From a virus (Duplodnaviria; Heunggongvirae; Uroviricota; Caudoviricetes): a stretch of 64,000 nucleotides of DNA. Below the pieces are notes generated by a model. That model was not told the DNA's origin. It saw only the letters and a program-made list of their open reading frames with translations, and made no database searches. This document shows, piece by piece, positions 27,974 through 55,583 of the stretch. Numbering within the stretch: position 1 is the stretch's first letter; each line of letters starts with the position of its first letter. The DNA lies in the IMG/VR virus record IMGVR_UViG_2907227753_000005. One strand, written 5' to 3'. Both the position numbers and the translations under genes were made by a program.

Positions 27974-28195
27974 CTCTTACTCCTCCCCACATTTGGTCTT
28001 TACATAGATTAGACCGAAACGGGTAGGCGGCAACGCGGATCGCGGCGGCGGGTGGGGCGGCGAGGATATAAGAAAAAGAGCCTACCGAAGATAGGCAGAC
28101 TCTTTAAAAAAGGGTTCCGAGCACAGCGAGGATATTAGTACTGGTTATGCTCATAACGGTTGTTATTAACTTTATATTCTTTGTGCTCAAAATTT

Positions 28196-28278
28196 GGGAT
28201 TTCATGTCCCAAAAAATAGGATTTCATGTCCCAAAAAACAGGATTTCATGTCCCAAAAAATAGGATTTTATCCCACTA
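28196..28278. repeat. 3.5 tandem copies of a 22-bp unit (ggatttcatgtcccaaaaaaXag) directly downstream of the terL stop
   Basis: Visible direct repetition. Each unit holds a small palindrome ggga-N7-tccc followed by an A/T run. Confidence 0.7.
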
Positions 28279-36493: not shown

Positions 36494-36495
36494 TA

Positions 36496-36569
36496 TGGGG
36501 TGACGGACGGAATCGAACCGTGGACTCCTGATTCACAGTCAGGCATGTTACCACTACACTATCGTCACC
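36496..36569 (-). tRNA. tRNA-His (GUG)
   Basis: Acceptor GGUGACG/CGUCACC with discriminator C. Anticodon arm CCUGA-CUGUGAA-UCAGG. Confidence 0.55.
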
Positions 36570-36985: not shown

Positions 36986-37060
36986 TGGCGGCTCTAAGGG
37001 GAATCGAACCCCTCCCTCTCCGCTGACAACGGAATGTCCTAACCGATAAACGATAGAGCC
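36986..37060 (-). tRNA. tRNA-Asp (GUC)
   Basis: Acceptor GGCUCUA/UAGAGCC. Anticodon arm UUCCG-UUGUCAG-CGGAG. T-arm GGGG-UUCGAUU-CCCC. GCCA end. Confidence 0.65.
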
Positions 37061-37064
37061 AAGG

Positions 37065-37176
37065 CATCACCCTGTCGGACTCGAACCGACTCTGGCGGCT
37101 AGTTTCCCCTTAGGTACTCGTAGCCACAGTGCATCCCACACTGAGGGCTAATAGTGCTCCCAACCCGAAGGTCAGG
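37065..37176 (-). other. T-arm-containing tRNA-like remnant fused to a minus-oriented copy of the conserved GC-rich intergenic element
   Basis: GUCGG-UUCGAGU-CCGAC T-arm with no matching acceptor. It is followed, in minus sense, by ccttcgggttggg-agcactattagccctcagtgtggg, which matches the 42.8 kb element. Confidence 0.3.
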
Positions 37177-38353: not shown

Positions 38354-38437
38354 TGGTGGATGAGGTAGGAGTCGAACCTACACAGCAGTTAAGCCACGGG
38401 TTTACAGCCCGCTATTCTCGCCAGTGATTGGTGCCCA
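38354..38437 (-). tRNA. tRNA-Tyr (GUA), class II with a long variable arm
   Basis: Acceptor GGAUGGG/CUCAUCC. Anticodon arm GCGGG-CUGUAAA-CCCGU. T-arm GUAGG-UUCGACU-CCUAC. ACCA end. About 84 nt. The D-arm is atypical. Confidence 0.45.
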
Positions 38438-38566
38438 TCCAAGTGGTTGTTCCTCTATGAAACATAGATTAGTGCAGTTAACTTAGGAAATAACACTCCA
38501 ACACGAAAAACCTGAGAAAAACTTCCTCAAGTTGAGTTTCTTCTATATAAGGGAGCAAAAAATTAA

Positions 38567-38963: not shown

Positions 38964-39752
38964 ATGAAGAAAATTGCACTGGTCATCACACTGGCATCAA
39001 CCCTTGTTTTCGGTTCCACTGCCGCGAACGTACAGGCATCGTCATTTAATGACGTAAGCGAGACAAAACACTCTTGGGCTGTTAAAGCCATCGACTTTAT
39101 GAGTGAGCAAGGAGTGATCAAGGGATACTCAGACGGAACGTTCAAACCCGACAATGGAGTGACTAAGGCAGAGTTCGTAAGTATGTTCTCCCGCCTTTTT
39201 GATAAGTACACTACCAACGACTCCACCACCCGCGAGTTCAAAGACGTTCCATCTACTAATTGGGCATATGAACCAGTATCTAAGATAATGTCGAACTATA
39301 CATACTTTACATACAGCAAAGACGGTAGCGGGATGAACTTCCATCCAAACACTAAATTGACTCGCCTGGGTGCCGCGAACTTGTTACCCGCACTATACGA
39401 AGAAATTGACGACGAAAAGGAAGTCTACAACATCCTACGAAGCATGAAAGACATCAAGGTTTATGAGAACGTTAACGGCTATGATCAAGATGGTAGGTTT
39501 GATGAATCAGTAGATCGCACTAACTCACAATTTCCAATCATCTTCAAAAACGGAGCACTAGATGACGACTATTCAGCTATCGTAGGAATAAAGATTGCAA
39601 GCCTTCAAAACGAAGGACTAATGACCGCTTATGAGGGTAATTTCAGCCCTAACAAGACACTCACTAGAGCTGAAGCCGCTACTACCCTATACCGCCTTTA
39701 TACTCAATTAAAGGGTGATGGCGATCTCTCGAATTACTCAAGTATTAAGTAG
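38964..39752 (+). CDS. Secreted protein with a signal peptide and three SLH domains, no catalytic domain (262 aa)
   Basis: MKKIALVITLASTLVFGSTAANVQA signal peptide. SLH1 FNDVSETKHSWAVKAIDFMSEQGVIKGYSDGTFKPDNGVTKAEFVSMFSRL. SLH2 FKDVPSTNWAYEPVSKIM.... SLH3 ...FSPNKTLTRAEAATTLYRLY. Confidence 0.7.
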   Translation: MKKIALVITLASTLVFGSTAANVQASSFNDVSETKHSWAVKAIDFMSEQGVIKGYSDGTFKPDNGVTKAEFVSMFSRLFDKYTTNDSTTREFKDVPSTNWAYEPVSKIMSNYTYFTYSKDGSGMNFHPNTKLTRLGAANLLPALYEEIDDEKEVYNILRSMKDIKVYENVNGYDQDGRFDESVDRTNSQFPIIFKNGALDDDYSAIVGIKIASLQNEGLMTAYEGNFSPNKTLTRAEAATTLYRLYTQLKGDGDLSNYSSIK

Positions 39753-39762
39753 AACGAAAATA

Positions 39763-39796
39763 AGAGCGCGGGGCTTAACTCCCTTCGCTCTTTTTC
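39763..39796 (+). terminator. Rho-independent terminator after the SLH gene
   Basis: gagcgcgggg...ccttcgctc hairpin followed by TTTTT. Confidence 0.55.
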
Positions 39797-40652
39797 TATT
39801 ATATAAGACACACCGCACCAACCTTACGAGAAAAATTTCCCCGCGCCCGTAGGAGTCCCATTAACTCGCGGAGCGAAAAATGTATTACCCCTAGATTTAC
39901 CCCGATTATGCAGGAAAAACCATACCTCCTTGACTTAGACAACAGCCGCCCCACTCCCATGCCCAATGCCCTTTACCCGCGCCCAACACCCATGCCCCCT
40001 TACCCTTTGCCCAAGACACGAGACCCCGCCGCCCGTGCCCCGAGACATTGCCCCAAGACCCTAACTCTCGCGCATCAAGGTTCACCAAAAATTTCCCGTA
40101 GGAGTCATGACGCTCCTGCGCCGTGTGAAGGATGATAGAAAAACCCGCGACACTGGGGGGGTTAATCTCTTGACCCTTGTTTGTTTTTATTTTTTATAAA
40201 AAAACATTGCTCAAAGGGGTTGCAATCCAATCCTATTGCGTTCTTAGATATGGTCATCGAGTTGGTCGCCGCCACCGACTCGATAGGGAAACATCCCGAA
40301 TGTACGACAGGCGGCAAAGACGCGAAATGCGCCTAGATCATTGACAAACACATACACGAAACATGCACGGCTTGTGCATGGGACGAAGCTTCTCTTGTGA
40401 AGGGTGAAGTCTGCCCACATGAAGGATTGTACTATGGCAACAGCCTACGCTTTACGGTTCATGCCCAACATGTAACGAGATGTCACGAATTGCCCACGTT
40501 ACGGGACGGTGTAGTACAAGGTGCGGTATCCGTAAGTTAATCGGAGGTTCAGATGCCTTGCTATGCTAGAGGTCTGTTCACTCATGGGCTAATCAGGGCT
40601 ACCAAAGGTAGTCACTATTAGTGCCCATCAAGGGCAAAGGAGACTAAAAACC

Positions 40653-41069: not shown

Positions 41070-41217
41070 GACAAGGATACCCGAGCTATGCTTGGGTAGT
41101 CCTGACTAGCCCATGAGCGAACAGACCAAGAGCCGATTGCACATAATCCGTATTATGTGATGTGATGGGCAGACCCGAGTGCCCAAGGCACTACTTTGTC
41201 CAAAAACAGGTGATTAT

Positions 41218-41407
41218 TATGTTATTCGCAAGATTCGTGCTAGTGTGTGACCGCATAGAACGTACAAGAGAGAAGATGCAGGTATACCGTGACAAGGGGT
41301 TTGAGAACCTTACAGTCGATGAACTACTAGAGTATGAGCATCTAATGGATGTAATGGACGGTCTTGATTCACAACTAGCAACACATATAAGAGAGACATA
41401 CGCTTGA
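41218..41407 (+). CDS. Small hypothetical protein (63 aa from MLFARF; the ORF track starts at 41162 inside the regulatory hairpin)
   Basis: RBS caggtga then ATG at 41218, downstream of the cccgagtgcccaaggcact hairpin element. Confidence 0.4.
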
Positions 41408-41892
41408 TCCGTAACCTAGCCCTTAGTCTTGGGTGCTAGGGTATGCCCATCACAACGCACCACGCACCACTTCCGAGCATGACGAGAGATAGCGAAGCCT
41501 AGCACTACACGTAATCTAAGGGTACTCCTAAGGACTACGAGAGTGTATCTAGTAGGCTCATGTAGAGCGGGTATGAGTGTATACCAAGGCATTGTTCAAT
41601 GTGTCCGAGGGATATACTCTCTAGTCTTCCTCTCTCTATAGTCATGCTCTCTTATATGGTGGGAGTCTTATATAGGATTGTAGACAGCCAACAGGTTGCT
41701 CTGCCCCGCCCCACCTGGGGTAGGTGTGCCCTAGCCATCCAACAGGATACCGAAGGCTTATATGGACTACCTTTACCTAGCGAAGTCACATAATACGGTC
41801 ACCTATATTCTCATGCTTTCCCTAGCTGTGGTGGAGGTATCCTGAGGTACCCACTCCCTACCCTTTCGGTATACCCGAGTGCCCAAGAAGGA

Positions 41893-41975
41893 TACCCATA
41901 CCCATGGCTAGGTATGCTCAGTCACTTAACTCTTATATATCTGTGTCGTATAGCTAAATTGAGTGACTGACCATG
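41893..41975. repeat. Long imperfect inverted repeat with about 23-bp arms (gctaggtatgctcagtcactt ... aattgagtgactgaccatgcctagc) around an AT-rich 30-bp centre
   Basis: Reverse-complementing the right arm gives gctaggcatggtcagtcactcaa, against the left arm gctaggtatgctcagtcacttaa. Confidence 0.55.
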
Positions 41976-42317
41976 CCTAGCCCACCCCGCCCACACCCCG
42001 ATTTGGGGTACGTTGGTGCAGTATAGAGCGTCCTATCGAGTGCTGATAGCACCTAAGCGGAACAGCTCTGTATCACGGGTTCTAGCTTGGCATAGATGTG
42101 TCAAATTCAAGGAGGAATACCCATGCGTAACAAGATGATGGTTGCATACGTTGGCAAGGTCGGTGGACTCAAGGAATACCTCAAAAAGCTCATAGCAGAA
42201 TACGAGAAAGTAGGTGCCTAAACATGACAAGATCACAGGCTGTAGTAGCCGCAAGCAAGCTTAAACGTAGATGGGCACTAAGAGATATGTATATATACGG
42301 TCAGCTCACTATCAAGT

Positions 42318-42368
42318 AATAGCTTGGACACTGCTCCCCGCCCATCTCCCCGAGGTGGTCGGCATGGA
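42318..42368 (+). promoter_or_regulatory. Conserved composite intergenic element (gacactgctccccgcccatc / variable GC hairpin / ggtcggcatggagtgcctaagagcact), copy 1
   Basis: Near-identical copies occur at 43491-43556 and 45460-45525. Diverged copies occur at 42811-42870, 51686-51745, 53133-53200 and, in minus orientation, 37131-37176. Hairpin-only variants (agtgc-N6-gcact or agcac-N6-gtgct) occur at 41175, 44093, 48907 and 42040. Each copy lies 40-80 nt upstream of a plus-strand start codon. Confidence 0.6.
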
Positions 42369-42411
42369 GTGCCTAAGAGCACTACTACATACCAACTAGG
42401 AGGATTCACAA

Positions 42412-42801
42412 ATGAAAGACGTACAAGTGCAAGTAAAGGTTATCGAGGGTATCGAGGTAAGAGCGCATGAGAAAGGCGAGTTCATGATTGGTGCCTTGAT
42501 TACGAATAACGGTAAAGAAGTCGGAGCAAGCGGTATCGTAGCTGGTGTACCTGAGGACATCACAAACTTCTATGCGGCTATTGAAGCTATGGCAGGATCG
42601 GTAACGAAAACACTGCTTGATGCTGAAGTACCACCACAGGTCATCGAAGGCATGATGATCGAAGCGATTCGGGACGGTATCAAAGAAGGAGTGACCCGTC
42701 ACGTAGCTGAAGAAATGCCGCATGTACATGCCATGGCTGAACGGGCTATGCAAGGTGACATCGGTGCCTTGCTTGGTATGCTCTCCAAAGTATTGGCTTA
42801 G
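42412..42801 (+). CDS. Hypothetical early protein (129 aa)
   Basis: Strong RBS AGGAGG and a conserved upstream element. Confidence 0.55.
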   Translation: MKDVQVQVKVIEGIEVRAHEKGEFMIGALITNNGKEVGASGIVAGVPEDITNFYAAIEAMAGSVTKTLLDAEVPPQVIEGMMIEAIRDGIKEGVTRHVAEEMPHVHAMAERAMQGDIGALLGMLSKVLA

Positions 42802-42874
42802 AAACTGCTAAGGCACCAAACCTTCGGGTTGGGTGTTCTGATGGAGTGCCTAAGAGCACTATCTAAACTAGGAG

Positions 42875-43258
42875 TTGGTTATCATCGAACACGAAGTGAT
42901 TCTATCCAAAATCAGATCCAAACGTGAGAACAGTCAGACCACCATGGCAGACATTAAGCGCATTGTTGCGGCTTATGAGTCAGGTGACTGGTCGGAAGTA
43001 ATTGACAGCAAGCTTTACAGAGAGCATAGCGGTGAATATTGTGAACTGCTTGAGTACATTAACATGCCTGAATGGTTGGTGGGTGTTGTAATGCCTACCT
43101 TTGTTGACCAACGGTACATACGAGATCGGGATTTGGAGATCGCCGCCCCCACCGCCGAGGATGCCAAGAGAAAGTGGTTCGAGCATATGAAAAACTGGAT
43201 ACGTGAAGACGAGAAACATCTCGTTAAGGTAGTTCGGAAGGGAGAGGAACTGAAATGA
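42875..43258 (+). CDS. Hypothetical early protein (127 aa, TTG start)
   Basis: RBS ctaggag then TTG, with a conserved upstream element. Confidence 0.5.
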   Translation: MVIIEHEVILSKIRSKRENSQTTMADIKRIVAAYESGDWSEVIDSKLYREHSGEYCELLEYINMPEWLVGVVMPTFVDQRYIRDRDLEIAAPTAEDAKRKWFEHMKNWIREDEKHLVKVVRKGEELK

Positions 43259-43497
43259 ACGACCTTCTCTCCCTTTTGATTGCTGAAGGGTTGAAGGCAA
43301 CCATCAACCATACCTTCGGTAACCTGATCGAGGTTGACCTTGAGGATGAGGTTATCCAAGTATGGCAGACCAACGCTCCACATGAGAAGCCTAAATATGA
43401 AATCACCGACACGAGGGACACAATCAAGATGGTGTGCCGCTCTGTTGATTCAGTACTGACCCATATGGTTCTATGGCTCGAAGCGGTTGTTAGTTAG
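43255..43497 (+). CDS. Hypothetical protein (80 aa)
   Basis: Coupled ATGA overlap with the previous gene. Confidence 0.45.
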   Translation: MNDLLSLLIAEGLKATINHTFGNLIEVDLEDEVIQVWQTNAPHEKPKYEITDTRDTIKMVCRSVDSVLTHMVLWLEAVVS

Positions 43498-43556
43498 ACA
43501 CTGCTCCCCGCCCATCGCTTTGGCGGTGGTCGGCATGGAGTGCCTAAGAGCACCCA
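43491..43556 (+). promoter_or_regulatory. Conserved composite intergenic element, copy 2
   Basis: gacactgctccccgcccatc-gctttggcggtg-gtcggcatggagtgcctaagagcac, upstream of 43596. Confidence 0.6.
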
Positions 43557-43595
43557 AAATAATAGCCCCTAGAGGGCAAGAGGAGAATATAAACA

Positions 43596-44053
43596 TGGAA
43601 AACGTAAACGTGAAATCGGTAGCAAACAACAAGGCGGTACTGGAAGTTGACCTGACTCAAGACCTGGGTGCAAGTGGTAGCGGTAAGAACCTGCTGATCG
43701 CCAAGACTGGTAGCAACATGCCAATCGCATCAGGTGTGAAGATCAACCTGAACGTATATAGAGCACTCCCTAAAGAGAATGAACCTGAAATCGACTTCAA
43801 GGGTGCCAAGGCTGAGATCGGATTCGCAGGTGGTGTTGCTAAGGTAGCAGGTAGCAAGCTTACCATCGAAGTTGACCTCACCTCTGACCTTGGTGAATCG
43901 GGTAGCGGCAAGAACATCCTGATCGCTAAAACAGGAAGCAACCTGCCACTGTTCAAGACGATAAAGATGAACCTGAACGTGTACAAACCAGTACCTAAGA
44001 CACCTACTAAGGTACCTGTAACTGGGGAGCCTGAGCAATTGACATTGGTCTAA
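43596..44053 (+). CDS. Hypothetical protein with two tandem copies of a roughly 60-aa repeat (start at MENVNVKS; the ORF track starts at 43487)
   Basis: Repeats ...VDLTQDLGASGSGKNLLIAKTGSNMP...NLNVY and ...VDLTSDLGESGSGKNILIAKTGSNLP...NLNVY. RBS gaggag upstream of the ATG at 43596. Confidence 0.55.
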
Positions 44054-44138
44054 TAGATGCTGATCGGGTACCTCAACCATGGTTGGGGTATCCCATTGAG
44101 CACCTATGAGTGCTACTAATTCTTTGAGGTGACAGCAC

Positions 44139-45002
44139 ATGACAACGTACAAACGTGCATCAAACGACAAGGCTACTCTGAAGATTGAACACGACAATCA
44201 CCCTTCTGACCCACGCCAAGAGATGGATGGTTGGGTAGGCGAGATGATTTGTTGGCACAACCGATACAACCTAGGTGATACACATGACTACTCGGAGCCG
44301 CGTGACTTCCTTGAGCACCTTGCCAAGGACTACTACAAGGGTGACGAGGACATGGATGACCTGACGATGGCTGAGCTGATGGGTATCATCGCTCCTCATG
44401 TTATCATCCTCCCCCTCTACTTGTACGATCACGGTGGTATCACAATGAGGACTAAATCATTTGGGGATCGTTGGGATAGTGGTCAGGTCGGTTGGATATA
44501 CGCTACCAAAGACAAGTTCCGTGAGGAGACTGGTTACAACGAAGATGAGCTGTTCAGCACTGATACCAAACGAGCTGTAAAGGTAGGCGACCAAGTGAAG
44601 GTCAAGGGTTACGAGAATGATGGTCTTGACGGTTGGGTGGAGGTAGTTTCCTTCTCCCGAGGTATGGTTCAGGTAGACCGCGACCACCACATGATCGAAG
44701 GGTTCAAGCGTCCTGACAGTTGGGTGATCGTGAATGAGAAAAGCATCACTGAGGTCATGAGCAACAAGGCGGTGCAGATGCTTGAAGCTGAGGTTGAGAT
44801 GTACGACCAGTACCTAACTGGGAGTGTGTATGGGTTCATCCTTGAAATCAAAAATCCGTGCCACTGTGGTAACCCTGAGTGTACTCGACATGAGGTTGAG
44901 GTAGATAGCTGTTGGGGTTTCTACGGGGACGACTTTATCAAGAATGGTATAGCTGAGCACATCGCCCCTGAGTATAGAGAATTACTAGAAGCATTGAGCT
45001 GA
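44139..45002 (+). CDS. Hypothetical early protein (287 aa)
   Basis: Clean ORF with RBS gaggtg and an upstream hairpin element. Confidence 0.55.
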   Translation: MTTYKRASNDKATLKIEHDNHPSDPRQEMDGWVGEMICWHNRYNLGDTHDYSEPRDFLEHLAKDYYKGDEDMDDLTMAELMGIIAPHVIILPLYLYDHGGITMRTKSFGDRWDSGQVGWIYATKDKFREETGYNEDELFSTDTKRAVKVGDQVKVKGYENDGLDGWVEVVSFSRGMVQVDRDHHMIEGFKRPDSWVIVNEKSITEVMSNKAVQMLEAEVEMYDQYLTGSVYGFILEIKNPCHCGNPECTRHEVEVDSCWGFYGDDFIKNGIAEHIAPEYRELLEALS

Positions 45003-45076
45003 GACAGAGCCTAGGTAAGCCAAGTTGAGACGAGCTGAGGAGACTAGATAAACAGATGAGCTGAGGAGAGATAGAG

Positions 45077-45274
45077 ATGAGAAAGTTAGGGATGCGAGTG
45101 AGATTTAACCTGGGTGAGCGTGTACGTATAGAACTGGGTGACCACACAGGCATGACTGGTGAGGTCGCCACCGCCCCCGAGGGTACTACATACAACTGGA
45201 AGAAGGAAGTATTCGTTCAGTTGGATGACGGTGACATCATACGAAAATACAAAAACGAGGTGTGCAAACTATGA
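45077..45274 (+). CDS. Small hypothetical protein (65 aa)
   Basis: RBS gaggag. Confidence 0.4.
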   Translation: MRKLGMRVRFNLGERVRIELGDHTGMTGEVATAPEGTTYNWKKEVFVQLDDGDIIRKYKNEVCKL

Positions 45275-45456
45275 ATCTTGAGAACTGTCCCGATTGCAAA
45301 GGAACTGGTGAGTATGTAGCCAAGAACGGTGACTCGTGGACATGTGAGTTTTGCTATGGTGAAAAGTTAGTCCCTGCTGAAGTAGCAGAGGAACAAAAGC
45401 AGAAGTGGCAAGGGTACAAGTCCATGATGGAAGGTTACGTTGACGTAGAGGATTGA
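45262..45456 (+). CDS. Small Zn-ribbon protein (64 aa)
   Basis: CPDC...CEFC motif. Confidence 0.45.
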   Translation: MQTMNLENCPDCKGTGEYVAKNGDSWTCEFCYGEKLVPAEVAEEQKQKWQGYKSMMEGYVDVED

Positions 45457-45459
45457 ACA

Positions 45460-45525
45460 ATAGACACTGCTCCCCACCCATCACCCATGTGGTGGTGGTT
45501 GGTATGGAGTGCCTATGAGTGCCAC
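45460..45525 (+). promoter_or_regulatory. Conserved composite intergenic element, copy 3
   Basis: gacactgctccccacccatc-acccatgtggtggtg-gttggtatggagtgcctatgagtgccact, upstream of 45566. Confidence 0.6.
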
Positions 45526-45565
45526 TGAGCACATGCACTAACCGACAATATGAGGAGTTGTTCAC

Positions 45566-46441
45566 ATGAACACAAAGAAAACAGCTAACTTTGAACCTGC
45601 AATCACCTTGTCGAAAGATACCTTCACCCATGAGGGTGTCCAGTACCATACTGAAAGCCGTAGAGCTAAGCGCGGCGAGATGATCCTCACGACTAAGACC
45701 ATCGGACACTATAAGAAAGGTCAGGTGTACGAAGTATCCGACTACACTGGCAAGGAAGCGTGGTGCAAGAACGATGAAGGATTCCCTATCCCAATCCGTC
45801 ACGCTGAGTATGTGGTGCTTGTGCCTATGGTTGAAGCACAACCCCTCCCCACCACCGTGTACTCCCCTTCCATGCTGAATCAGCTTGAAGCAAGTGGGAC
45901 ACCGATCTTCAACGAGTACCACCATACGGTGCTTGACTTCAGTGAGGTGGATCGTGGGCACACACTGGTCATGAAGCTTCCCGCAGGTGACCACATCACG
46001 GTATGCGGCATGATCATGAGCGATAAGGTCAACGCCATCGTTGACATTGAGTACCACGGTGACAACGGTCAGCAGATGATCGGGTTCACTGGTAATGAGA
46101 CACCTCAGGTACGGGACAGCCGAAGCAAGCACAAGCTATACAGCTTGGACATCCGACCTGACCATAAGGATAAGCCATACGGCGATACCCTGACATTAGC
46201 GTTCCGCAGGGTTGATGAGGTCATCATCGACATCTCCATGAACGTAGGTTCTTGGATGTCTAAGAACACTGACAGCCTACCTGATGGATACGACTCCCGT
46301 GTTCTCAACCGAGCCATCCATGAATGGGCGGTAGAGTTTGAGAAAGAGTTTGGTAGAGAAGCACGGGACGACTACTACGACAGGGTTGACATCTTCTCTG
46401 AGAAGAAGATCAGCCAATGGGCACAGGAATACACCGAATAA
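45566..46441 (+). CDS. Hypothetical early protein (291 aa)
   Basis: RBS gaggag and a conserved upstream element. Confidence 0.55.
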   Translation: MNTKKTANFEPAITLSKDTFTHEGVQYHTESRRAKRGEMILTTKTIGHYKKGQVYEVSDYTGKEAWCKNDEGFPIPIRHAEYVVLVPMVEAQPLPTTVYSPSMLNQLEASGTPIFNEYHHTVLDFSEVDRGHTLVMKLPAGDHITVCGMIMSDKVNAIVDIEYHGDNGQQMIGFTGNETPQVRDSRSKHKLYSLDIRPDHKDKPYGDTLTLAFRRVDEVIIDISMNVGSWMSKNTDSLPDGYDSRVLNRAIHEWAVEFEKEFGREARDDYYDRVDIFSEKKISQWAQEYTE

Positions 46442-46537
46442 TCGGACACCGTTACCATACCTCACCCCGCCGTGGGGTATGGGATAGGGTGCCTGATTGC
46501 CTTTGAGCAACGCACCACTAAATTACGAGGTGATAGC

Positions 46538-47467
46538 ATGAGTGAAAGAGTAGTGTTACAGAGCAGAATCAACGTGGGTACATACGAAGGCAAGCGGTTA
46601 TCGGTGGAAGCAGTCATCAAGCTGAAGACTTCCTCCCGTGAGACCACGACTCATAAGCACATCAAAGAGTACTACACGCTGTCCATCACGGGTAGCTACA
46701 ACGGCGGTGGCGGTCAGTGCATTGATGCCCTGAAGAAGTTGGATTCGGTAGAAATACCTGAACAGGACTTGAAAGACCTAATCGAGATTTGGGAACGGTA
46801 CCACCTGAACGATCTGACAGCCCGATGTGAACATCATACACCAATCCCCGTCAGACATGACGACCCTGAGTACGATCACTACGTATGGTTGAGTGGTAAG
46901 CAGTGCCCTAACGGGTACAGGTACGGATCATCTTGGTTGATCACTGAGCTTCCACAAGAGGTTATCGACCGAGTGGAAGAAATCTTCACATCCCAACCAA
47001 AAGCCCCGTCGATCACCGAGGAATGGGAGTTGACCATGAACGGTAACCGTGGTGAGCTGACTGTTGGCGACATCCAAGTGACCGTGGATTATGTAGGTAA
47101 GACCAACCCTATCAAGGTATGGGGCGCATCTCACAAGGACATTGACTACAAGACGATTTACCAGTACCTCGTGACCTGCATCCACAAAGGGACGCACAAG
47201 ACTATGAGCTTTGACTTCTTCGACAGCATCGACAACTCCAAGAAGCCGCCGTTCGCTCCTAGCCTGGGCTATTCGGTTATGTGCTGTATCCGCAGTGATT
47301 CATTCACAACGTCAGCCAACTATCCTACCCTTGAGAGCTTCTGCTCCGAATTTGGGTACGATGCTGATAGCCGCAAAGCCGAGAAAACTTACACGGCTTG
47401 CATTGAGCAAGGTGACAAAATAAGCAAGGTATTCGATGCAGAACTGATCGAAACCCTCCCGCAGTAA
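46538..47467 (+). CDS. Hypothetical protein (about 310 aa from MSERVVLQ; the ORF track starts at 46472)
   Basis: The internal ATG has a better context. GGGGQC motif. Confidence 0.5.
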   Translation: MSERVVLQSRINVGTYEGKRLSVEAVIKLKTSSRETTTHKHIKEYYTLSITGSYNGGGGQCIDALKKLDSVEIPEQDLKDLIEIWERYHLNDLTARCEHHTPIPVRHDDPEYDHYVWLSGKQCPNGYRYGSSWLITELPQEVIDRVEEIFTSQPKAPSITEEWELTMNGNRGELTVGDIQVTVDYVGKTNPIKVWGASHKDIDYKTIYQYLVTCIHKGTHKTMSFDFFDSIDNSKKPPFAPSLGYSVMCCIRSDSFTTSANYPTLESFCSEFGYDADSRKAEKTYTACIEQGDKISKVFDAELIETLPQ

Positions 47468-47475
47468 AGGGAGGA

Positions 47476-48210
47476 TTGACCGATATGGATTCAGCAGCCT
47501 ATGATAAAGTTGTGATCGAAGGTCGGTACGCTGACGAGTTATGTCAGCGTTTCGACATGATGGATAATGCCACTGGAAGCATGTTAGCACTGATGGGGTT
47601 TGTAAGTGACTTCAGGTTCCCCTTGATGAGGGGCATCCTACTTCTTGAGTACGGCGGTACAGGTGATGTGGTCATCACATTCAACCTTGACGATGACCGA
47701 ACAGGTAGCGGTCATTACAAGATGAATAGCGGGATTGAATGGAGAGTTCAGGGTACCAAGATAACCCTCCTCTCCGATCCCCCTAACCCCGCTGATCGGA
47801 AGAAGGTTACTGAGATCGCTCAGTACTTCACCAACGTGTTCAAGGCAGTCATGCAACGTATGACAAGACGTAAGGATGAAGTTGTGAAGGAGGAACGCCG
47901 CATACCCAAGGTCAAGAAGGGTAAGGTCAAGCACGGTAAGAAACAGAAGAACCGAACGGTATACGTTAGGCAGACCGTCTACAAGGTATCCTCCCCTACC
48001 CCATCCCCTACTATAGAAGAAGGAGAACGTGAGAAGCGTGACTATGAGCGGCAAACGTTCAGATGGACAAGGGCAGGACATCACCGCCGACTACGCAACG
48101 GCGAGGTTAGATGGTTCCCTGAGAAGGAGATTGTTCTTGATCCTAACGCAGTGAAGGAAAGTAAGACCTACAAAATACAGAAAGGTGAAGGTGAACAGAA
48201 TGACGGTTAA
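47476..48210 (+). CDS. Hypothetical protein with a Lys-rich basic segment (244 aa)
   Basis: KVKKGKVKHGKKQKNR stretch. It overlaps the next gene. Confidence 0.5.
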   Translation: MTDMDSAAYDKVVIEGRYADELCQRFDMMDNATGSMLALMGFVSDFRFPLMRGILLLEYGGTGDVVITFNLDDDRTGSGHYKMNSGIEWRVQGTKITLLSDPPNPADRKKVTEIAQYFTNVFKAVMQRMTRRKDEVVKEERRIPKVKKGKVKHGKKQKNRTVYVRQTVYKVSSPTPSPTIEEGEREKRDYERQTFRWTRAGHHRRLRNGEVRWFPEKEIVLDPNAVKESKTYKIQKGEGEQNDG

Positions 48211-48655
48211 ACGTAACGAACTGGCAGAAAAGTATGAGAAGGTTGAGGGTACCATCATGGTACCTATCAAGTACACCCTGGATGACTTGGAAGGTCTCCT
48301 TATTAGTGCATGGGAAGGTGGAAGTACATATTGGGTCGGCAAGGTTGAGGTGAATCACCCTAAAGTAGCTAAGCAGGTTGCTTATGACGCTGACTGGGCT
48401 ACCTCTGAGTGGGCTTTCAACGCACTTGTTGAGGGTGGTAGCATCTATGTCGAAGACAACGAGGGTGGAGAATACAAGGGCACCATCACCTTGGAAAGCT
48501 TTAAGAAAGGCTTTGAGAAGTTCGTCGCTCACCGTGCTAACCAAAGCGCACTGAACTTTATCTACAACGGCAGTATTGACGGTGGTCAACTCGATGCAGG
48601 TGATGCTGATGGAGTATTCCAGTACGCGGCATTCGGAGAGTGGGTGTTCGGATGA
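48185..48655 (+). CDS. Hypothetical protein (156 aa)
   Basis: Coupled to its neighbours. Confidence 0.5.
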   Translation: MKVNRMTVKRNELAEKYEKVEGTIMVPIKYTLDDLEGLLISAWEGGSTYWVGKVEVNHPKVAKQVAYDADWATSEWAFNALVEGGSIYVEDNEGGEYKGTITLESFKKGFEKFVAHRANQSALNFIYNGSIDGGQLDAGDADGVFQYAAFGEWVFG

Positions 48656-48861
48656 TTAAAGGTATTCACCTGGGTAAGAATGTTGGGCTAGAGGGTATTA
48701 AAGAGGTCTACCATGTAGAGGTCGCTGTCACTGATAACGGGACGGTTAACTTCTTCCTGTTCAAGGACGGTCATCCCCTCTCCCCCGCCGAGATGTCCCC
48801 TGAGGAAAAAGAGTTCTTGAAGGGTGAACTGAAGTCTGTCGTAGACGATATGCTTAACTAA
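48640..48861 (+). CDS. Small hypothetical protein (73 aa)
   Basis: Overlaps the previous stop. Confidence 0.4.
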   Translation: MGVRMIKGIHLGKNVGLEGIKEVYHVEVAVTDNGTVNFFLFKDGHPLSPAEMSPEEKEFLKGELKSVVDDMLN

Positions 48862-48985
48862 ATAGATGCTGATAGAGAGACCCATCCTAGCATACCTGGA
48901 TGGGTCTTTCGCTTGAGCACCTATAGAGTGCTACTTAACATACCCTCCCCTATACCGTATAGAGAGGGTAAAGGAGATGACTTTA

Positions 48986-50010
48986 TGCAACACACAAAAG
49001 AAAGCATCAAGGAAATGATTATTGGAACTGGTATTCTTCAGGTTACCACCCGTGACGGTGAGGATTTTGCCATCGTGGACGGTTACCCTGATATTGACCG
49101 CTGTTTGTATATGATCGCTGAAGCACTGGCACCTGAATCCATTCAGGAATACCGTGACTTCCACGACCCAATCAACAATCACCAACTGATCCAAGGTGAC
49201 CGACTGGTGACATACGGTAGCCTAGCCTATGCAGGGTGCGCTGTACCTGAGGTTCTTGAGGTAGCCCTTGAGAAGGCAGGGATTGAGGACATATGGTTCG
49301 AGAATATCGTTATGGAATACGGGTTCTCAGATCAGTATTGCCTATGTGGGGGTTGTAGTAAACCCATCTGCCACTTCCCTTCTTCAGGCTCCCCCGACAC
49401 CCACTACCACAACAACGGCGAGGTGGTGTGCGTCGATTGCTTCAAGAGTAACGGTCTGAAGGATGAGTACCTAGAAACCTGCATCAACAACCCTCGGAAC
49501 GCAGTACAGTTCGGTCTTGTATCCTTTGATGAGCTGTACGCCGAGGGCTTTGAGAAGCATCACCAATCGCCCTACCACAATGGTCTCCATAAGGGTATGA
49601 ATGACGTACCTGAGGAGGTACTGAAGAAACTGAACGAAGAAGGTTTCGATGAGGTGCTGTTCACCTTGGACGAGAACACCTCATTCCACATGACCTTTAG
49701 TGCCTGGGTACGCCGAAAGGAAAGCATCGAAGGAAAGGCAGTGATCAGTCCAGAGCTTAGGGATGAGATTATAGAAACAGCAAGTAGAGAACTAATCCTC
49801 TACGATGTTTATGAGGGCGTTTTAAACGACAGCTTTATTCTGTATGGTGCTAAAAAGATTGCAATCGAAGGTATAAACCCCACTGAGTATATTGTACTGC
49901 ACAATAAGTACGTCAATGTATGGACAAGCGAAACAGAATTAATTGCAACGAACGATATTCAAATCGTTAACAGCTATAAAGAGCTGTTCGGAGAGGGTGA
50001 GGAACAATGA
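48986..50010 (+). CDS. Hypothetical Cys-rich protein (about 341 aa from MQHTKE; the ORF track starts at 48913)
   Basis: RBS aaaggaga. CxxC pairs (CLCGGC...CHF, CVDC). Confidence 0.5.
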
Positions 50011-50333
50011 TCGGACGGTTTGAACGGGTCGTAGTTATCTTTGGTGGTAGGGACGAGAACTTCAGAACCTTTGAAGGTGGTAAGTTTGAAGCACGTACCT
50101 ATGAGGAGATGGAGGAGATCGAGCGTAAGTTTGATGCACTCGACCACCGCTCCACCTACTGGCAGATGTTTAAGGACAAGTACGTTAAGTGCTCATGCGG
50201 TGAGGAAGTACCTTGTGGTCGCTTCACCAACACATGCGAATGTGGTAGAGACTACGGCTTCGACGGTAGCCTGTTGGCTGATCGCTCCCAATGGGGCGAG
50301 GAAACTGGCGAACACTGGACGGAGGGTTACTGA
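50007..50333 (+). CDS. Small Zn-binding protein (108 aa)
   Basis: CSCG...PCGRF...CECG motifs. Confidence 0.45.
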   Translation: MIGRFERVVVIFGGRDENFRTFEGGKFEARTYEEMEEIERKFDALDHRSTYWQMFKDKYVKCSCGEEVPCGRFTNTCECGRDYGFDGSLLADRSQWGEETGEHWTEGY

Positions 50334-50554
50334 TGCAACGTCAAAGCCTTAATACGTGGAAGACCATATTCAAGAACCTTGCTGAAGACGATCAGGAAGT
50401 CGAAGTAACATGGCTAGACCCTGGGGATGCAAGTGCGGGTGAGTGGTGCTTACACTGGGAGAACGAGCTGTTCGAGGATGGCTTCGCTACCGAGAAGGAA
50501 GCAAATGAGCGGTTGAAACACCTACAAAAACAATTACTGGTGATGGAGGGGTAA
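50333..50554 (+). CDS. Small hypothetical protein (about 73 aa from MQRQSL)
   Basis: RBS ggaggg then an ATGA-coupled start. Confidence 0.4.
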   Translation: MQRQSLNTWKTIFKNLAEDDQEVEVTWLDPGDASAGEWCLHWENELFEDGFATEKEANERLKHLQKQLLVMEG

Positions 50555-50556
50555 AC

Positions 50557-50712
50557 ATGTTCAACGTAGTTATCAAAGCATGGAAGAACGACGAGGTGAT
50601 CGAGACGATTACCAAAGAGCCTGTATCGGAGCGTTCCGCTGAACGTATCGAGAGAGGGGTTAACATCAATCTGAACCACGATGAGTATTACACAGAAGTG
50701 GTACCTGCATAG
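50557..50712 (+). CDS. Small hypothetical protein (51 aa; below the ORF-track cutoff)
   Basis: ggaggggtaaacATG with a 51-codon open frame. Confidence 0.3.
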   Translation: MFNVVIKAWKNDEVIETITKEPVSERSAERIERGVNINLNHDEYYTEVVPA

Positions 50713-50832
50713 ACCCTGCTAGGACAGCTCACCTTCGGGTGGGCTTTTCAATGGAGCGGTCTATAAGGGCTGTAGAAGGGACACCCCACCTTCGGGGTGG
50801 ACACCCTCCCTTCAAAGGGGGTGACCTGGAAA

Positions 50833-51020
50833 TGGACATCTTCTTCGCTACAGCCTTAGCGGTGTTGGGATTCGTTCTTGCTAGTTTAGGAATTATCAAT
50901 CGCATTCTTAAAAAGCTTAACGAGTCCGTTCGCCTGTTGAGTAAGCTGAGGACTTCCCTTCGCTTGTTCAACAAAAAGAAAAAGGACAAAGCCGATTCCC
51001 TCCCCCGCCAAGGTTCGTGA
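50833..51020 (+). CDS. Small membrane protein (62 aa: one TM helix plus a basic tail); toxin- or holin-like moron candidate
   Basis: MDIFFATALAVLGFVLASLGII then a Lys/Arg-rich tail. It is bracketed by clusters of GC-rich hairpins. Confidence 0.4.
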
Positions 51021-51143
51021 GTCGATTAAGTCCCTTTCAGGGAGGAACAAGTTCGCCGCTTGTTCCTTCCCTTCTACGGTCTATTATAGCCGCTCTGCTT
51101 TACAACATCAAGTGCCGACGAGCACTAATCAGGAGGAACTAAC

Positions 51144-51677
51144 ATGGAAGAGAATATCAACTTTGAACTGAAAGTAATTAACCCTATCGAGGAGATCATT
51201 ACCGTATCCGCATCCGTTGACTCAGGGTGGTCGGGTGGTCGCTATCAGGTATCACTGTCTTACAACCCTGCACGTAAGGTTTTCATTGTATCCGCTCCAA
51301 ACTACTGGGTGTCCATGGAAACTACCAAACCACATAAATGTGCCAACAAGATCAGTGAGCATGGTATCAGTAGAAATGACGCATTGACGATTGAAGCTAT
51401 CGTCAATCAGCTCCTCCTCCCTGCCCTTCGCAAGAAGATGGATGCGGCTGAGGAGTTTGAGAACCATGTGTACTCCCATTCGGTCATGGGGTACGTCCGT
51501 CAGAACCTTGACCTTGAAGCTAATGATGACTCTAAGGACATGGAGATCGCTCAGATGTCCCGTAACGAGGTGTTCGACCGTGTGCTTGAATGGAATGGAT
51601 TCATAGGGTACGGAAGCACGGTTCGTGACTGGGTTGAAGGTGTATACGGTGTGAAGCTCAGCAAGATTCGTATGTAA
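51144..51677 (+). CDS. Hypothetical protein (177 aa)
   Basis: RBS aggagg. Confidence 0.55.
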   Translation: MEENINFELKVINPIEEIITVSASVDSGWSGGRYQVSLSYNPARKVFIVSAPNYWVSMETTKPHKCANKISEHGISRNDALTIEAIVNQLLLPALRKKMDAAEEFENHVYSHSVMGYVRQNLDLEANDDSKDMEIAQMSRNEVFDRVLEWNGFIGYGSTVRDWVEGVYGVKLSKIRM

Positions 51678-51685
51678 TTTGTCCC

Positions 51686-51745
51686 CTGCTCCCGCCTATC
51701 ACCTTCGGGTGGTGGACGGCATGGAGGGTACAACGCCCTACCCTA
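51686..51745 (+). promoter_or_regulatory. Conserved composite intergenic element, diverged copy with a UUCG-tetraloop hairpin
   Basis: cctgctcccgcctatc-accttcgggtg-gtggacggcatggagggtac...gtgccatcgagcac, upstream of 51778. Confidence 0.5.
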
Positions 51746-51777
51746 TAGTGCCATCGAGCACAGAAAGAGGTTACATC

Positions 51778-52716
51778 ATGAGTTTTTCCAAAATTGATAC
51801 TGCACAAAACGAACTTATCAACCTGATCCCTAAGGAAGCTAAGGAGACCCGAGAGAACCTGCTTGCAGTGATTAGCAACATTCGGGTCATTCAAAAGGAC
51901 AACATCCTTGCCTGGATTCCCATAAGTCACATCAACGAGGAATCCGTTGACCTGAGTGAGTTTCGTTACATTGATGACTATGAGATCGTTACGGGTTCGC
52001 ATACTGCACTCGACAATACCATGTGGCGTTCTGAGGAAGCGTACCGTGAACACCTTGAGAAGATTTCTGAAAGGAAATTTGTTGTAGGTTCCTACTGGAA
52101 AGTAGCTGACGTGAATAACGAGTATGACTCATTAGAGTTCGGTTCTATGGGTGACGCTGAAGACCACCTCGAAACCCTTGTAAACGGTGGGGTGGATCGG
52201 GAGCTTCTATTCGTAGAGGAGAAGTGGTGTATACTTACAATGTCAGGTGACAATTACGACCAGGAAGAAGATCGTAACGGCGAGTATACCTACGAGTCGG
52301 AAGCTGAGAGTGACATCGAAGACTGCCGCGTCGAGTGGATTGACGAACAGGTTAGAGACCTTGGAGATTTCGAGTACGATGAGGTCATGGAGAATACAGT
52401 CTTCCGTTACGGTCACAAGAGATCGGTTAACCACGATCTAGCTCAAGACCTGGGAATGGCTGTCGTAAGGTTCGATAGAGGTGAGCACGAAGGTTATGAG
52501 TACATCGTAGTTAAAGGAACGGGAACGGATTCGACCCCTGCCTACGTATGCTACCAAGCCATTGAGTTCGGTCACGTCAGTGAGAACGATGCTCGTTGGT
52601 TCACAGAACATAAAAAGGAGTTCTTCATCGACGTTGTAGGACAGGAATTGTATGAGATGGCTATGAAAGCACTGAACCTTGAGCGATTCATAGAGGGGGC
52701 TACCGATACGCCATGA
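51778..52716 (+). CDS. Highly acidic hypothetical protein (about 312 aa from MSFSKI; the ORF track starts at 51679); DNA-mimic candidate
   Basis: Asp/Glu-rich throughout (EEDRNGEYTYESEAESDIED...). RBS gaaagagg. Confidence 0.5.
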   Translation: MSFSKIDTAQNELINLIPKEAKETRENLLAVISNIRVIQKDNILAWIPISHINEESVDLSEFRYIDDYEIVTGSHTALDNTMWRSEEAYREHLEKISERKFVVGSYWKVADVNNEYDSLEFGSMGDAEDHLETLVNGGVDRELLFVEEKWCILTMSGDNYDQEEDRNGEYTYESEAESDIEDCRVEWIDEQVRDLGDFEYDEVMENTVFRYGHKRSVNHDLAQDLGMAVVRFDRGEHEGYEYIVVKGTGTDSTPAYVCYQAIEFGHVSENDARWFTEHKKEFFIDVVGQELYEMAMKALNLERFIEGATDTP

Positions 52717-52904
52717 ACATGAAGAAGTGTGATGGTTGTTTCAAGGAATCCTTTAGCTCCTGCGGCAATGGACAACAATGGACTTGCCCACACTGCAACA
52801 AGGACATTACACACGTAAAGGTGCAACTCCCACCACAGGTTAAATCCTCTGAGAGGATGCGGTTAGATGCAAAATACAAGTACGAGCCTTATACAGACAA
52901 ATGA
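52713..52904 (+). CDS. Small Zn-ribbon protein (63 aa)
   Basis: CDGC...CPHC. Confidence 0.4.
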   Translation: MNMKKCDGCFKESFSSCGNGQQWTCPHCNKDITHVKVQLPPQVKSSERMRLDAKYKYEPYTDK

Positions 52905-52948
52905 CAAAGAAATTAACAAGCGGCTTAACTATCAGGAGGTTGTTTCGT

Positions 52949-53128
52949 ATGAATAAAGTAGGCGTTATGGATGCGATCATGGAGCAGTTCGGGGTTGAAT
53001 ACGGAGACATCTTTATGGATGATGACGGTACGTTCGAGCTGAACGACGATGAACAGCGTTATCGGTACATAGAGTTACCTGGGGAGACACAGAACGAGTT
53101 CCAATACGCGTTCCATAAGGTAGATTAG
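52949..53128 (+). CDS. Small acidic protein (about 60 aa from MNKVGV; the ORF track starts at 52901)
   Basis: RBS caggagg upstream of the internal ATG. Confidence 0.4.
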   Translation: MNKVGVMDAIMEQFGVEYGDIFMDDDGTFELNDDEQRYRYIELPGETQNEFQYAFHKVD

Positions 53129-53132
53129 GACA

Positions 53133-53200
53133 CTCCCACCCTGCCACTGGACATCAGACGGTGGCAGTAGGGAGTGCCCTAGTGTACCCTGGTGGCACAA
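53133..53200 (+). promoter_or_regulatory. Conserved composite intergenic element, diverged copy
   Basis: gacactcccaccctgcc-actggacatcagacggtggcag-tagggagtgccctagtg, upstream of the DnaD-like gene. Confidence 0.45.
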
Positions 53201-53780: not shown

Positions 53781-53851
53781 ATCAGTAACCACCAACCCCT
53801 CTCCTATCCGAGGGGTTTCTTGTGGTGTGAGATCAAGGGGGAGTTTTACGA

Positions 53852-55094: not shown

Positions 55095-55583
55095 ATGCAG
55101 TCATTGAAGCTTCTATCCACTTATGCACGAAACGGGGTAGTCATCCTTAGTAAGCTCAAATCGCGGAATTATCCACTCTACTTGTATCTGAAGTCCAATC
55201 TCGGGCAACTTACTCCCGCCCTAACCGCTCAAGGTGTGGGGGTACTCGATGACTTAAAAACACTTAAGGAGCCTGAAAAGATCAGGCTGTTTTTGCAATA
55301 TCACTATGGCGAGACCGTTGACCTTTCAGAAGTTAGGCAGATTCACAGGACGGTCTATAACTACCTCTTAGGATATGGAAAGCCCCGAGAGGTAGTCGAG
55401 GGTTTGGGCTTTAATGTAGAGTACCAATCCCATACCCCCAACTTAGAAAAAGACCTGGGTAATTTAAGAGATTCTGATGGGAACTTCCCTCCTCTCCCCC
55501 AGTCCACATACAATAAAGTCTATTACCGAGCTAAGAAGCAAGGTATTGACGTAAAACACTACCTCAAGTCTTTAGGGACTTGA
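55095..55583 (+). CDS. Hypothetical protein (162 aa)
   Basis: Clean ORF. Confidence 0.5.
   Translation: MQSLKLLSTYARNGVVILSKLKSRNYPLYLYLKSNLGQLTPALTAQGVGVLDDLKTLKEPEKIRLFLQYHYGETVDLSEVRQIHRTVYNYLLGYGKPREVVEGLGFNVEYQSHTPNLEKDLGNLRDSDGNFPPLPQSTYNKVYYRAKKQGIDVKHYLKSLGT

Follow-up and report, generated by a model that had tools for sequence, protein, structure and literature searches.

The 64,000-nt stretch of DNA analysed here (the window; IMG/VR virus record IMGVR_UViG_2907227753_000005, Caudoviricetes) comprises most of an integrated prophage that exact-protein matches locate in Paenibacillus chromosomes. The phage is a Jenst-like siphovirus, its nearest cultured relative being the distant Brevibacillus phage Jenst (50% portal identity, identical late-gene order). 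At 40.6-53.8 kb the window carries an array of genes for whose proteins Pfam and PHROG returned nothing informative (ORFan genes), and the subject of this work is a family of composite elements, 60-80 nt long, lying between these genes.

Ten intergenic elements in an ORFan gene array

An alignment of the ten intergenic copies of the element and two copies from a relative was converted into a covariance model and run, with no filters, over both strands of the window. The model returned exactly ten strong sites (41-72 bits, the next best scoring 11.6), all of them on the plus strand, at 42324, 42798, 43494, 44053, 45460, 46442, 48862, 50709, 51679 and 53126. These sites are the model's own training sequences and score highly by construction, so that the informative result is the absence of further sites. 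The copies fall into two subfamilies, A (A1-A8) and B (B1 and B2), and are listed here in order along the array; S2 and S3 are stems of the fold described below, and the third strand is the 3' arm of its small hairpin.

42324..42383, plus strand: A1; long hairpin 42324-42376, UUGG/A.C/CACU ... AGUG/CUAA; 72.5 bits; minimum free energy (MFE) -25.7 kcal/mol, z -3.1
42368-42383, plus strand: alternative small hairpin of A1, AGUGC-CUAAGA-GCACU
42798..42860, plus strand: A2; stop codon UAG inside the basal helix, cUUCGg apical loop, small hairpin 42845-42860; 67.2 bits
43494..43553, plus strand: A3; stop codon UAG inside the base; 71.5 bits
44053..44114, plus strand: B1; AUAG/A.C/UGCU ... AGCA/CUAU; 67.0 bits; small hairpin AGCAC-CUAUGA-GUGCU, with the stem polarity swapped
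45460..45539, plus strand: A4; S3 CCA:UGG, compensatory to CCG:CGG; 71.3 bits; extended 3' hairpin, outer AGUGC:GCACU, inner GUGC-CACUGA-GCAC
46439..46516, plus strand (model match at 46442): A5; base UAAUCGG:CUGAUUG, S2 CACC:GGUG, third strand GCACC, all three strands altered in step; 58.6 bits
48862..48932, plus strand: B2, of subfamily B; 49.8 bits, z -7.05
50709..50776, plus strand: A6, diverged; base AUAGACC:GGUCUAU, cUUCGg loop; 53.3 bits
51679..51739, plus strand: A7; S2 CCCU:AGGG, third strand GCCCU, cUUCGg loop; 50.3 bits
53126..53198, plus strand: A8, the last copy; CACUCCC:GGGAGUG, third strand GGCAC; 41.3 bits

Full copies occupy ten of the twelve intergenic gaps of at least 40 nt found between 42.3 and 53.2 kb in this same-strand array. 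The remaining two are the gap at 51021-51143, which holds a diverged composite, and the gap at 45003-45076, which holds no element. The latter is purine-rich and contains GAGCTGAGGAGA twice just before gene 45077.

A preliminary description of this DNA, made from the letters alone, had reported a family of at least ten composite elements, each made of a left box, a variable hairpin and a right box ending in an AGTGC-N6-GCACT hairpin. The family proved real, though its membership had to be corrected. The left box GACACTGCTCCCCGCCCATC was located at 42327, 43497 and 45463 with 0-1 mismatch (chance expectation 0), AGTGC-N6-GCACT occurs exactly three times against 0.06 expected, and the 29-nt right box was found at 42354, 42831, 43525 and 45494; the hexamer GAGTGC is clustered, with 9 of its 18 occurrences in the window falling within 41.2-45.5 kb. 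The sites at 44093 and 48907, previously taken for short variants, are instead full members of the second subfamily, in which the box sequences covary, and the full copies at 46442 and 50709 had been missed. The genes concerned, first described as early/middle, belong to an ORFan array of an integrated prophage. Three other proposed members, at 37131 on the minus strand and at 41175 and 42040, did not score as members and consist of a hairpin only, either one of the UUCG kind or a small one of GAGTGC type whose loop is 3 nt long. A further site at 58884, carrying a CUCCCCGCCC box, has no model match and may fall inside a longer open reading frame (ORF) call. A scan of 36.9-60 kb against Rfam (E up to 1) returned only tRNAs and no family matching the elements. 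The variants related to the family for which the model gave no match are as follows.

41177..41192, plus strand: hairpin-only variant AGUGCC-CAA-GGCACU, before gene 41219
42038..42052, plus strand: hairpin-only variant GUGCU-GAU-AGCAC, at the end of a 715-nt gene-free region
51039..51126, plus strand: diverged composite; strong hairpin 51039-51072, then AGUGC-CGACGA-GCACU at 51111-51126

In the relative L019, a C-to-U change in the hairpin at 41177..41192 retains the stem as a G.U pair. The small hairpin at 51111-51126 ends 12 nt before the Shine-Dalgarno (SD) sequence of gene 51144, and the hairpin at 42038..42052 is preceded by a CCCCGCCC box and a hairpin. The gene-free region in which it lies, 41408-42122, has no called gene over 715 nt in three independent assemblies and is about 98% conserved in L019 and in a second relative, L209; it contains CCCCGCCC boxes at 41705 and 41986, several hairpins, the GAGTGC hairpin at 42038 and a 17-nt tandem repeat at 41617-41656, and may be a non-coding RNA or a long leader.

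A bistable sense-strand RNA structure at cistron boundaries

Three properties had previously been overlooked: the left and right boxes pair with each other as the arms of a single helix, this helix and the terminal hairpin are in competition, and the elements lie directly at stop codons. The MFE architecture is common to all ten copies and consists of a long, irregular hairpin of 53-63 nt with some 20-25 base-pair positions (counted from the dot-bracket structures), folding with z of -2.5 to -7 against dinucleotide shuffles. Its base comprises 3-7 bp, usually (U)UAG:CUA(A), and is followed by a single conserved A.C mismatch, a 4-bp stem (S2), a G.G mismatch with one C-G pair, an internal loop of about 3x3 nt (UCC/CAU), a 3-bp stem (S3, CCG:CGG), a C.U mismatch and a GC-rich apical stem of 7-13 bp. 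The apical loop is wholly different among copies, the top is always paired, and three of the five 4-nt apical loops are the RNA-specific cUUCGg. The most conserved letters flank the internal loop (5'-CUGCU on the left, AUGGAG-3' on the right), and the spacing from left to right box varies between 39 and 44 nt. A kink-turn reading of the internal loop was ruled out by inspection, the loop being 3x3 and not a 3-nt bulge with tandem G.A pairs.

In the MAFFT alignment the basal helix is 95% paired, with eight of its nine pairs altered on both sides, and none of 500 column shuffles matched the observed score; sliding the partner by 1-3 columns reduced basal pairing to 27-47%. Since the copies are related to one another, the shuffle control can be exceeded by relatedness alone, and a stronger case for the helix is made by the slid control and by how many distinct pair types occur. 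In a model-based alignment of 25 copies from three prophage variants, which is fitted to the structure and leans towards it, the basal helix is likewise paired, at 97%. S2 reads CACU:AGUG in most copies, CACC:GGUG at 46439, CCCU:AGGG at 51679 and UGCU:AGCA in both B copies. The upper stems share no single register and are each paired individually.

The small hairpin (AGUGC-N6-GCACU, 5 bp) takes as its 5' arm the very stretch that serves S2 and the base as their 3' arm, and the long and small hairpins are therefore mutually exclusive. The small helix is 88% paired, with two pairs altered on both sides and a covariation score that none of 500 shuffles matched. The MAFFT alignment mis-registers A4, A5, A7 and A8, in which the partner strand lies further downstream and is altered in step. 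The partners on the third strand read GGUGC...GCACC at 46488-46516, AGGGU-ACAAC-GCCCU at 51725-51739, GUGCC...GGCAC at 53174-53198 and AGCAC...GUGCU in subfamily B, and the concerted changes in the mis-registered copies thus amount to a three-way covariation of the left, middle and right strands. When the first 10 nt, corresponding to the 5' arm of the base and S2, were barred from pairing, a small 3' hairpin formed in all ten copies at a cost of 0.7-6 kcal/mol, A6 forming a different, 7-bp hairpin.

All copies are oriented as the genes. G.U pairs number 19 in the predicted structures, and in 10 of 11 comparisons the sense strand folds more stably than the antisense strand. Relative to the 95%-identical L019, the elements carry 17 substitutions, of which 11 fall in loops or mismatch positions; five of the six at paired positions keep or restore pairing, three of them being C-to-U changes that give G.U pairs. 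Divergence is 2.5% in the elements against 4.4% in flanking coding DNA. The G.U pairs, the cUUCGg loops, the orientation with respect to the genes and the L019 substitutions indicate that the functional form is the sense-strand RNA.

In every one of the ten copies, the start of the basal helix lies between -1 and +7 nt relative to the first base of the preceding gene's stop codon, and UAG or UAA is part of the helix in five of them. At the other side, the distance from the end of the small hairpin to the following start codon is 14-55 nt, which revises the 40-80 nt given at first; of the two, the register with the stop codon is the more informative constraint. Together, these results show that the elements constitute a conserved bistable sense-strand RNA structure located at the cistron boundaries of one array.

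This register with the stop codon bears on the possibility, which we regard as unlikely, that the elements are translation-sensing RNA switches operating without cleavage. A ribosome at the stop codon would melt the 5' arm and the middle strand would flip into the small hairpin, coupling the fate of the downstream cistron (its translation, its stability or the access of Rho) to translation upstream. The constant distance to the stop codon in ten of ten copies, the two mutually exclusive and covarying helices and the flip of the fold on masking 10 nt in all copies agree with such a switch. Adjacency to the stop codon is, however, expected from compact packing alone, and neither conformer visibly hides the SD sequence or start codon downstream of the small hairpin, so that no output mechanism is apparent.

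The preliminary description had offered three interpretations: a phage-specific promoter class, a binding site for a DNA-binding regulator, and a processed or structured leader RNA. Only the last is strengthened by the pairing of the boxes, their covariation, the G.U pairs, the cUUCGg loops and the third strand. That the elements are signals in DNA, either promoters or operators of a master repressor such as the SPBRE/MrpR system of SPbeta, now appears improbable. Their position before genes and the conserved right box of about 23 nt do resemble promoters of phage RNA polymerases, and the relative Jenst encodes a sigma-24-like protein. Nonetheless, the elements begin at stop codons between tightly packed cistrons and not in promoter-sized gaps, and the boxes covary as a helix, with compensatory changes, across a spacer of variable length, which recognition in DNA does not require. 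The statement that they lack likeness to a sigma-A -35/-10 pair was confirmed: no such hexamers and no promoter-like site occur inside any element, and the region as a whole has no more promoter-like sites than chance would give (27, with 26.6 expected). Among the window ORFs tested, none was found to encode an RNA polymerase or sigma factor, and the giant ORF encodes a tape measure protein; these observations likewise disfavour the promoter class and the DNA-regulator site.

The comparison with SPbeta is instructive in this regard. This large temperate Bacillales phage likewise has about ten intergenic repeats, 15 bp long and lying in promoter regions, that are bound by MrpR (PMC10516654). 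SPBRE is a 15-bp double-stranded operator in promoter regions, whereas the elements are hairpins of 60-80 nt with compensatory changes and located at stops (PMC10516654). A scan of window ORFs, to which the left part of the prophage does not belong, showed no gene for a recombinase-like master repressor.

Promoters of the N4 type were also considered, since a 3050-aa ORF and the hairpins with 3-nt loops at 41177 and 42038 hinted at a virion RNA polymerase. N4-type promoters are early promoters at the genome end, with a 5-7-bp stem and a 3-nt loop, served by a giant virion RNA polymerase. The ORF in question is a tape measure protein (PF10145) with no polymerase match in PHROG or Pfam, the portal is Jenst-like, and the N4-type reading was rejected.

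Intrinsic terminators were ruled out as well, no U-tract lying behind the hairpins. No T-run follows any of the ten long hairpins, and there is no T-run terminator within the array (42.3-53.2 kb). The only element listed in the terminator search is the small hairpin of B1, a weak match with a 5-bp stem, and the first plus-strand terminator-like sites after the array are at 53798, one gene past A8, and at 55561.

Directly upstream of the array lies a gene-free region of 900 nt (39753-40652), in which a terminator-like hairpin (39763-39792) is followed by a strongly C-rich, G-poor stretch, especially at 39930-40070, with repeated (A/T)TGCCC units and two copies of CCCGTAGGAGTC. The array transcript may start in this region, or the region may serve as an origin, for packaging or as a rut-like site.

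A very improbable alternative is that the elements are selfish or neutral repeats, akin to repetitive extragenic palindromes (REP) or miniature inverted-repeat transposable elements (MITEs), with at most an incidental effect on mRNA stabilisation. As multi-copy, imperfect, intergenic palindromes with conserved ends and a variable centre, they do recall REPs, the mosaic BIME elements and some MITEs. REPs and MITEs are dispersed and occur in both orientations, whereas the elements lie on one strand, in one orientation and in one array, with none in the other 52 kb of the window. Their tops are unrelated in sequence yet always paired, unlike what decay from a master copy would leave, and the covariation of the third strand, the stop-codon register and a divergence below that of coding DNA argue for selection.

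Cassette exchange, distribution and prophage setting

Comparison with relatives by BLAST revealed one difference in gene content at the elements, involving two close relatives of the prophage: L019, which is 95% identical to the window, and L209, which is 99% identical to the left of the cassette and 94% to its right.

42860..43524, plus strand: two-gene cassette with ORFs at about 42875/42944-43258 and at 43255-43497, absent from L019 and L209

The left boundary of this indel is the right box of A2 and its right boundary is A3. At the junction L019 and L209 have a single hybrid element, composed of the left part and top of A2, the shared right box and the downstream flank of A3, which was read directly in L019 at 9353-9419. 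The boundaries are ambiguous: the two BLAST alignments overlap by 28 nt, of which 19 nt (ATGGAGTGCCTAAGAGCAC) are identical in A2 and A3. The composition of the hybrid indicates a crossover within the identical 19 nt, ATGGAGTGCCTAAGAGCAC, and, as a secondary role, the conserved boxes also serve as homologous joints for the gain and loss of cassettes. Identity to relatives jumps from one cassette to the next, with values between 90% and 99.7%; apart from the cassette indel, the mosaic breakpoints could not be placed exactly at elements.

In this respect the elements resemble the PeSLs of T4-type phages, which are conserved composite intergenic motifs repeated in ORFan-rich regions and situated at indel boundaries. 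PeSLs coincide with the indel boundaries of closely related phages and were proposed to permit modular shuffling (PMC2839356, PMC4122927). Here such a boundary was found in one case, that of the two-gene cassette. A PeSL combines a sigma-70 early promoter with a terminator stem-loop, whereas the elements lack both a sigma-A-like promoter and a U-tract, and RNA pairing accounts for their conservation.

Presence and absence of a cassette also recalls integron attC sites, and it could be asked whether the elements act as folded single-stranded DNA, as recombination sites that mark mobile gene cassettes. We consider this improbable. The similarities are a conserved basal helix, unpaired bases at fixed positions, a variable top, one copy per promoterless cassette in uniform orientation, the presence or absence of a two-gene cassette with the junction inside the right box, and the cassette-by-cassette shifts in identity to relatives. 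The basal boxes, however, differ from R''/R' (RYYYAAC...GTTRRRY) in both sequence and order, the element base UUAGA.../...CCUAA having by inspection the opposite polarity to R''/R', with G/C ends that are not conserved. No recombinase or integrase was found among the tested ORFs of the window, which does not include the left part of the prophage, and attC function would leave the RNA-type features (cUUCGg loops, G.U-preserving changes and a covarying third strand) unexplained. The single indel is equally well explained by homologous recombination across 19-28 identical bases, and the mosaic breakpoints do not fall cleanly at elements.

To the extent covered by our searches, the family is confined to this prophage lineage. 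The covariance model detected it in the window, L019, L209 and L201-203. Outside the lineage it detected nothing in the two thirds of the Jenst genome covered, in the flanks or among 16 IMG/VR relatives of gene 44139. One weak match outside the lineage, at L003 9329-9372 (19.7 bits), lies within an ORF whose product (...RDTAKRFGVSKSTVHKDL...) reads, judged from its sequence, like a helix-turn-helix protein, and this DNA (GACACTGC...GGAGTGTCTAA) was taken as a coincidence and not as a family member. A megablast of 41-53.5 kb against phage records gave no match, and an exact scan of IMG/VR for the right box gave one, inside an unrelated coding sequence. A gapped box pattern, which at 17 specified bases is too loose, produced only single-copy, chance-like matches in unrelated taxa of IMG/VR and GTDB; a tighter pattern gave six single matches in JGI metagenomes, none of which was scored by the covariance model. 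For gene 44139, one homologue is 93% identical and no other exceeds 52%, so that intermediate relatives for deeper covariation are lacking.

With regard to the prophage as a whole, the same DNA is present, for example, in NCBI GCA_001955535.1, on MPVN01000002.1 (1.1 Mb), and the NCBI protein label is 'unclassified Paenibacillus'. The late genes occupy the minus strand between about 34 kb and position 1 and include, besides the 3050-aa tape measure ORF, an M23 peptidase tail protein and the following two genes.

25595-27184, minus strand: portal gene
28286-30001, minus strand: large terminase gene

Twelve tRNA genes occupy 36.2-38.4 kb on the minus strand, and from 38.9 kb on the genes point in the plus direction. 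The right end of the prophage, as read in L201 (11708-20900), lies about 1.6 kb past the end of the window, where a 206-aa plus-strand gene is followed by a minus-strand amidase and holin and then by the host genes DUF2953, scpB, scpA, ribH, ribBA, ribE and ribD. This succession of amidase, holin and host genes shows that the phage is integrated, unlike Jenst, which has genes for replication initiation and partition and terminal repeats of 359 bp.

Several further features of the prophage were recorded. Two of its proteins (38964-39752 and 8095-8745) have S-layer-homology (SLH) domains, which fit an S-layer-bearing host and have a counterpart in Jenst gp155. A 22-nt unit, GGATTTCATGTCCCAAAAAATA, is repeated in tandem (3.3 copies, 96% matches) at 28197-28268, extended to 28166-28275, within the 312-nt gap between the large terminase gene and gene 27200-27973, and could be a packaging or protein-binding site. 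Next to tRNA-Glu, an Rfam match resembling tRNA-Sec at 38358-38440 (minus strand), with a sub-threshold 39.5 bits against a gathering score of 47 and uncalled by ARAGORN, may be a long-arm tRNA; beside tRNA-Asp, at about 37040-37100 (minus strand), lies a T-arm-like remnant, GGTTCGAGTCC. L019 lacks about 73 nt corresponding to window 36495-36567 (at L019 3103-3106), the size of one tRNA gene and the place of tRNA-His (36497-36569), so that the tRNA sets differ between otherwise 95%-identical prophages. Within the array, gene 43595-44053 contains an internal 81-nt direct repeat (43643-43723 and 43868-43948, 78% identity), and its 152-aa product accordingly consists of two related halves.

Processing and stability as a candidate function

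Our tentatively preferred reading, which we put forward as a candidate, is that the elements are modules for mRNA processing and stability, similar to RNase III sites with an added 5'-protective hairpin. In the proposed mechanism, RNase III would cleave the CUGCU/AUGGAG loop on its 3' side. The upstream message would thereby keep the large hairpin at its 3' end, where it would block exonucleases, while the cut would free the 3' arm and allow the new 5' end, GG-AGUGC...GCACU, to snap into the small hairpin. Together with its GGAG, this hairpin would protect the downstream message against RNase J1, the 5'-exonuclease of Firmicutes, and attack by RNase J1 on new 5' ends would explain why the third strand has been maintained. 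A terminating ribosome, which covers roughly the first dozen nucleotides after the stop codon and with them the basal helix's 5' arm, could trigger this refolding as well.

In their predicted form, the elements resemble the R0.3-R1.3 sites of T7 and the RNase III sites of SP82, which are likewise related, irregular hairpins of about 20 bp or longer with an internal loop. The T7 and SP82 sites stand between cistrons of long early phage mRNAs, and for the array a single transcription unit of about 42.3-53.2 kb is predicted; the elements too have an irregular stem of about two helical turns, with a 1x1 mismatch and an internal loop. They differ from these sites in their register with the stop codon and in their covarying third strand, through which an alternative hairpin can form near the 5' end. 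We know of no report of either a third strand or a stop-codon register in the T7 or SP82 sites. The elements would work like phage RNase III sites with a protective hairpin, and we make no claim that they belong to that class.

Phage RNase III sites of this kind are documented by Panganiban & Whiteley 1983 and Mitra & Bechhofer 1994, as cited in PMC4838370 and PMC1935012. RNase III cleaves T7 stems that contain an internal bubble only on their downstream side, and Bs-RNase III makes a single cut, likewise downstream, in SP82 targets that have internal loops; after this cut in loop-bearing SP82 and T7 substrates the hairpin stays on the upstream RNA (PMC1935012). For B. subtilis, PMC4838370 describes the action of RNase J1 and RNase Y as governed by 5'-proximal structure. 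In eight of the ten copies, the predicted downstream product, starting GG-AGUG, folds with a hairpin no further than 1-3 nt from the 5' terminus. The stabilisers known at Firmicute 5' ends include 5'-terminal hairpins, the SD-like 'STAB-SD' and the polypurine stabiliser of SP82. A small hairpin behind GGAG is like these, if it stands at the 5' end, and the hairpin of the elements would become 5'-terminal only after the predicted cut.

Several considerations weigh against this candidate function. We infer cleavage of the elements, the nuclease and the co-transcription of the array, and the predicted downstream products of B1 and B2 have no 5' hairpin as their minimum-energy structure. The copies are paralogues of one lineage together with two close relatives and are not independent, and RNase III sites in B. 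subtilis have no simple consensus that can be scored (PMC11780869). In addition, the stem sequences are conserved beyond what pairing needs, which could mean a sequence-specific protein partner in place of RNase III.

Such a partner is the basis of another reading, to which we assign a low likelihood, somewhat below that of the translation-sensing switch: the elements would be RNA sites for a phage-encoded protein, whether an antiterminator, a translational regulator or a dedicated endonuclease, that recognises the CUGCU/AUGGAG loop, the A.C mismatch and the GAGUGC hairpin. Conservation of the internal loop and of the AGUGC stem sequence is in keeping with this, as are the solitary GAGUGC-type small hairpins before genes at 41177, 42038 and 51111 and the restriction of the family to one prophage lineage, as for a private protein-RNA pair. 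On the other hand, no RNA-binding or nuclease domain was detected in the array proteins, which gave only sub-threshold matches, and ten sites in one operon would be unusual, antitermination signals normally acting once near the start. Recognition by a dedicated phage protein and the ribosome-operated switch without cleavage are serious rivals of the processing and stability modules.

It is also conceivable, if unlikely, that the elements represent a new kind of three-strand RNA module, in which a nuclease site or ribosome-operated switch with a built-in 5' hairpin stands at every cassette boundary and the boxes enable swaps between phages, as an RNA-level counterpart of an integron array. Each cassette would then bring its own processing and stability signal. 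Being compact, at 60-80 nt, the element may also prove useful for insulating the cistrons of synthetic operons in Gram-positive bacteria.

Alongside the PeSLs known from T4-type phages, the elements are a second, unrelated example of conserved intergenic signals that act as joints for cassette exchange in ORFan-rich phage regions. If the model of processing and stability modules holds, a Firmicute phage would have solved a problem absent in T7, that of shielding each new 5' end from RNase J1, and the shield would be a covarying third strand inside the processing site itself.

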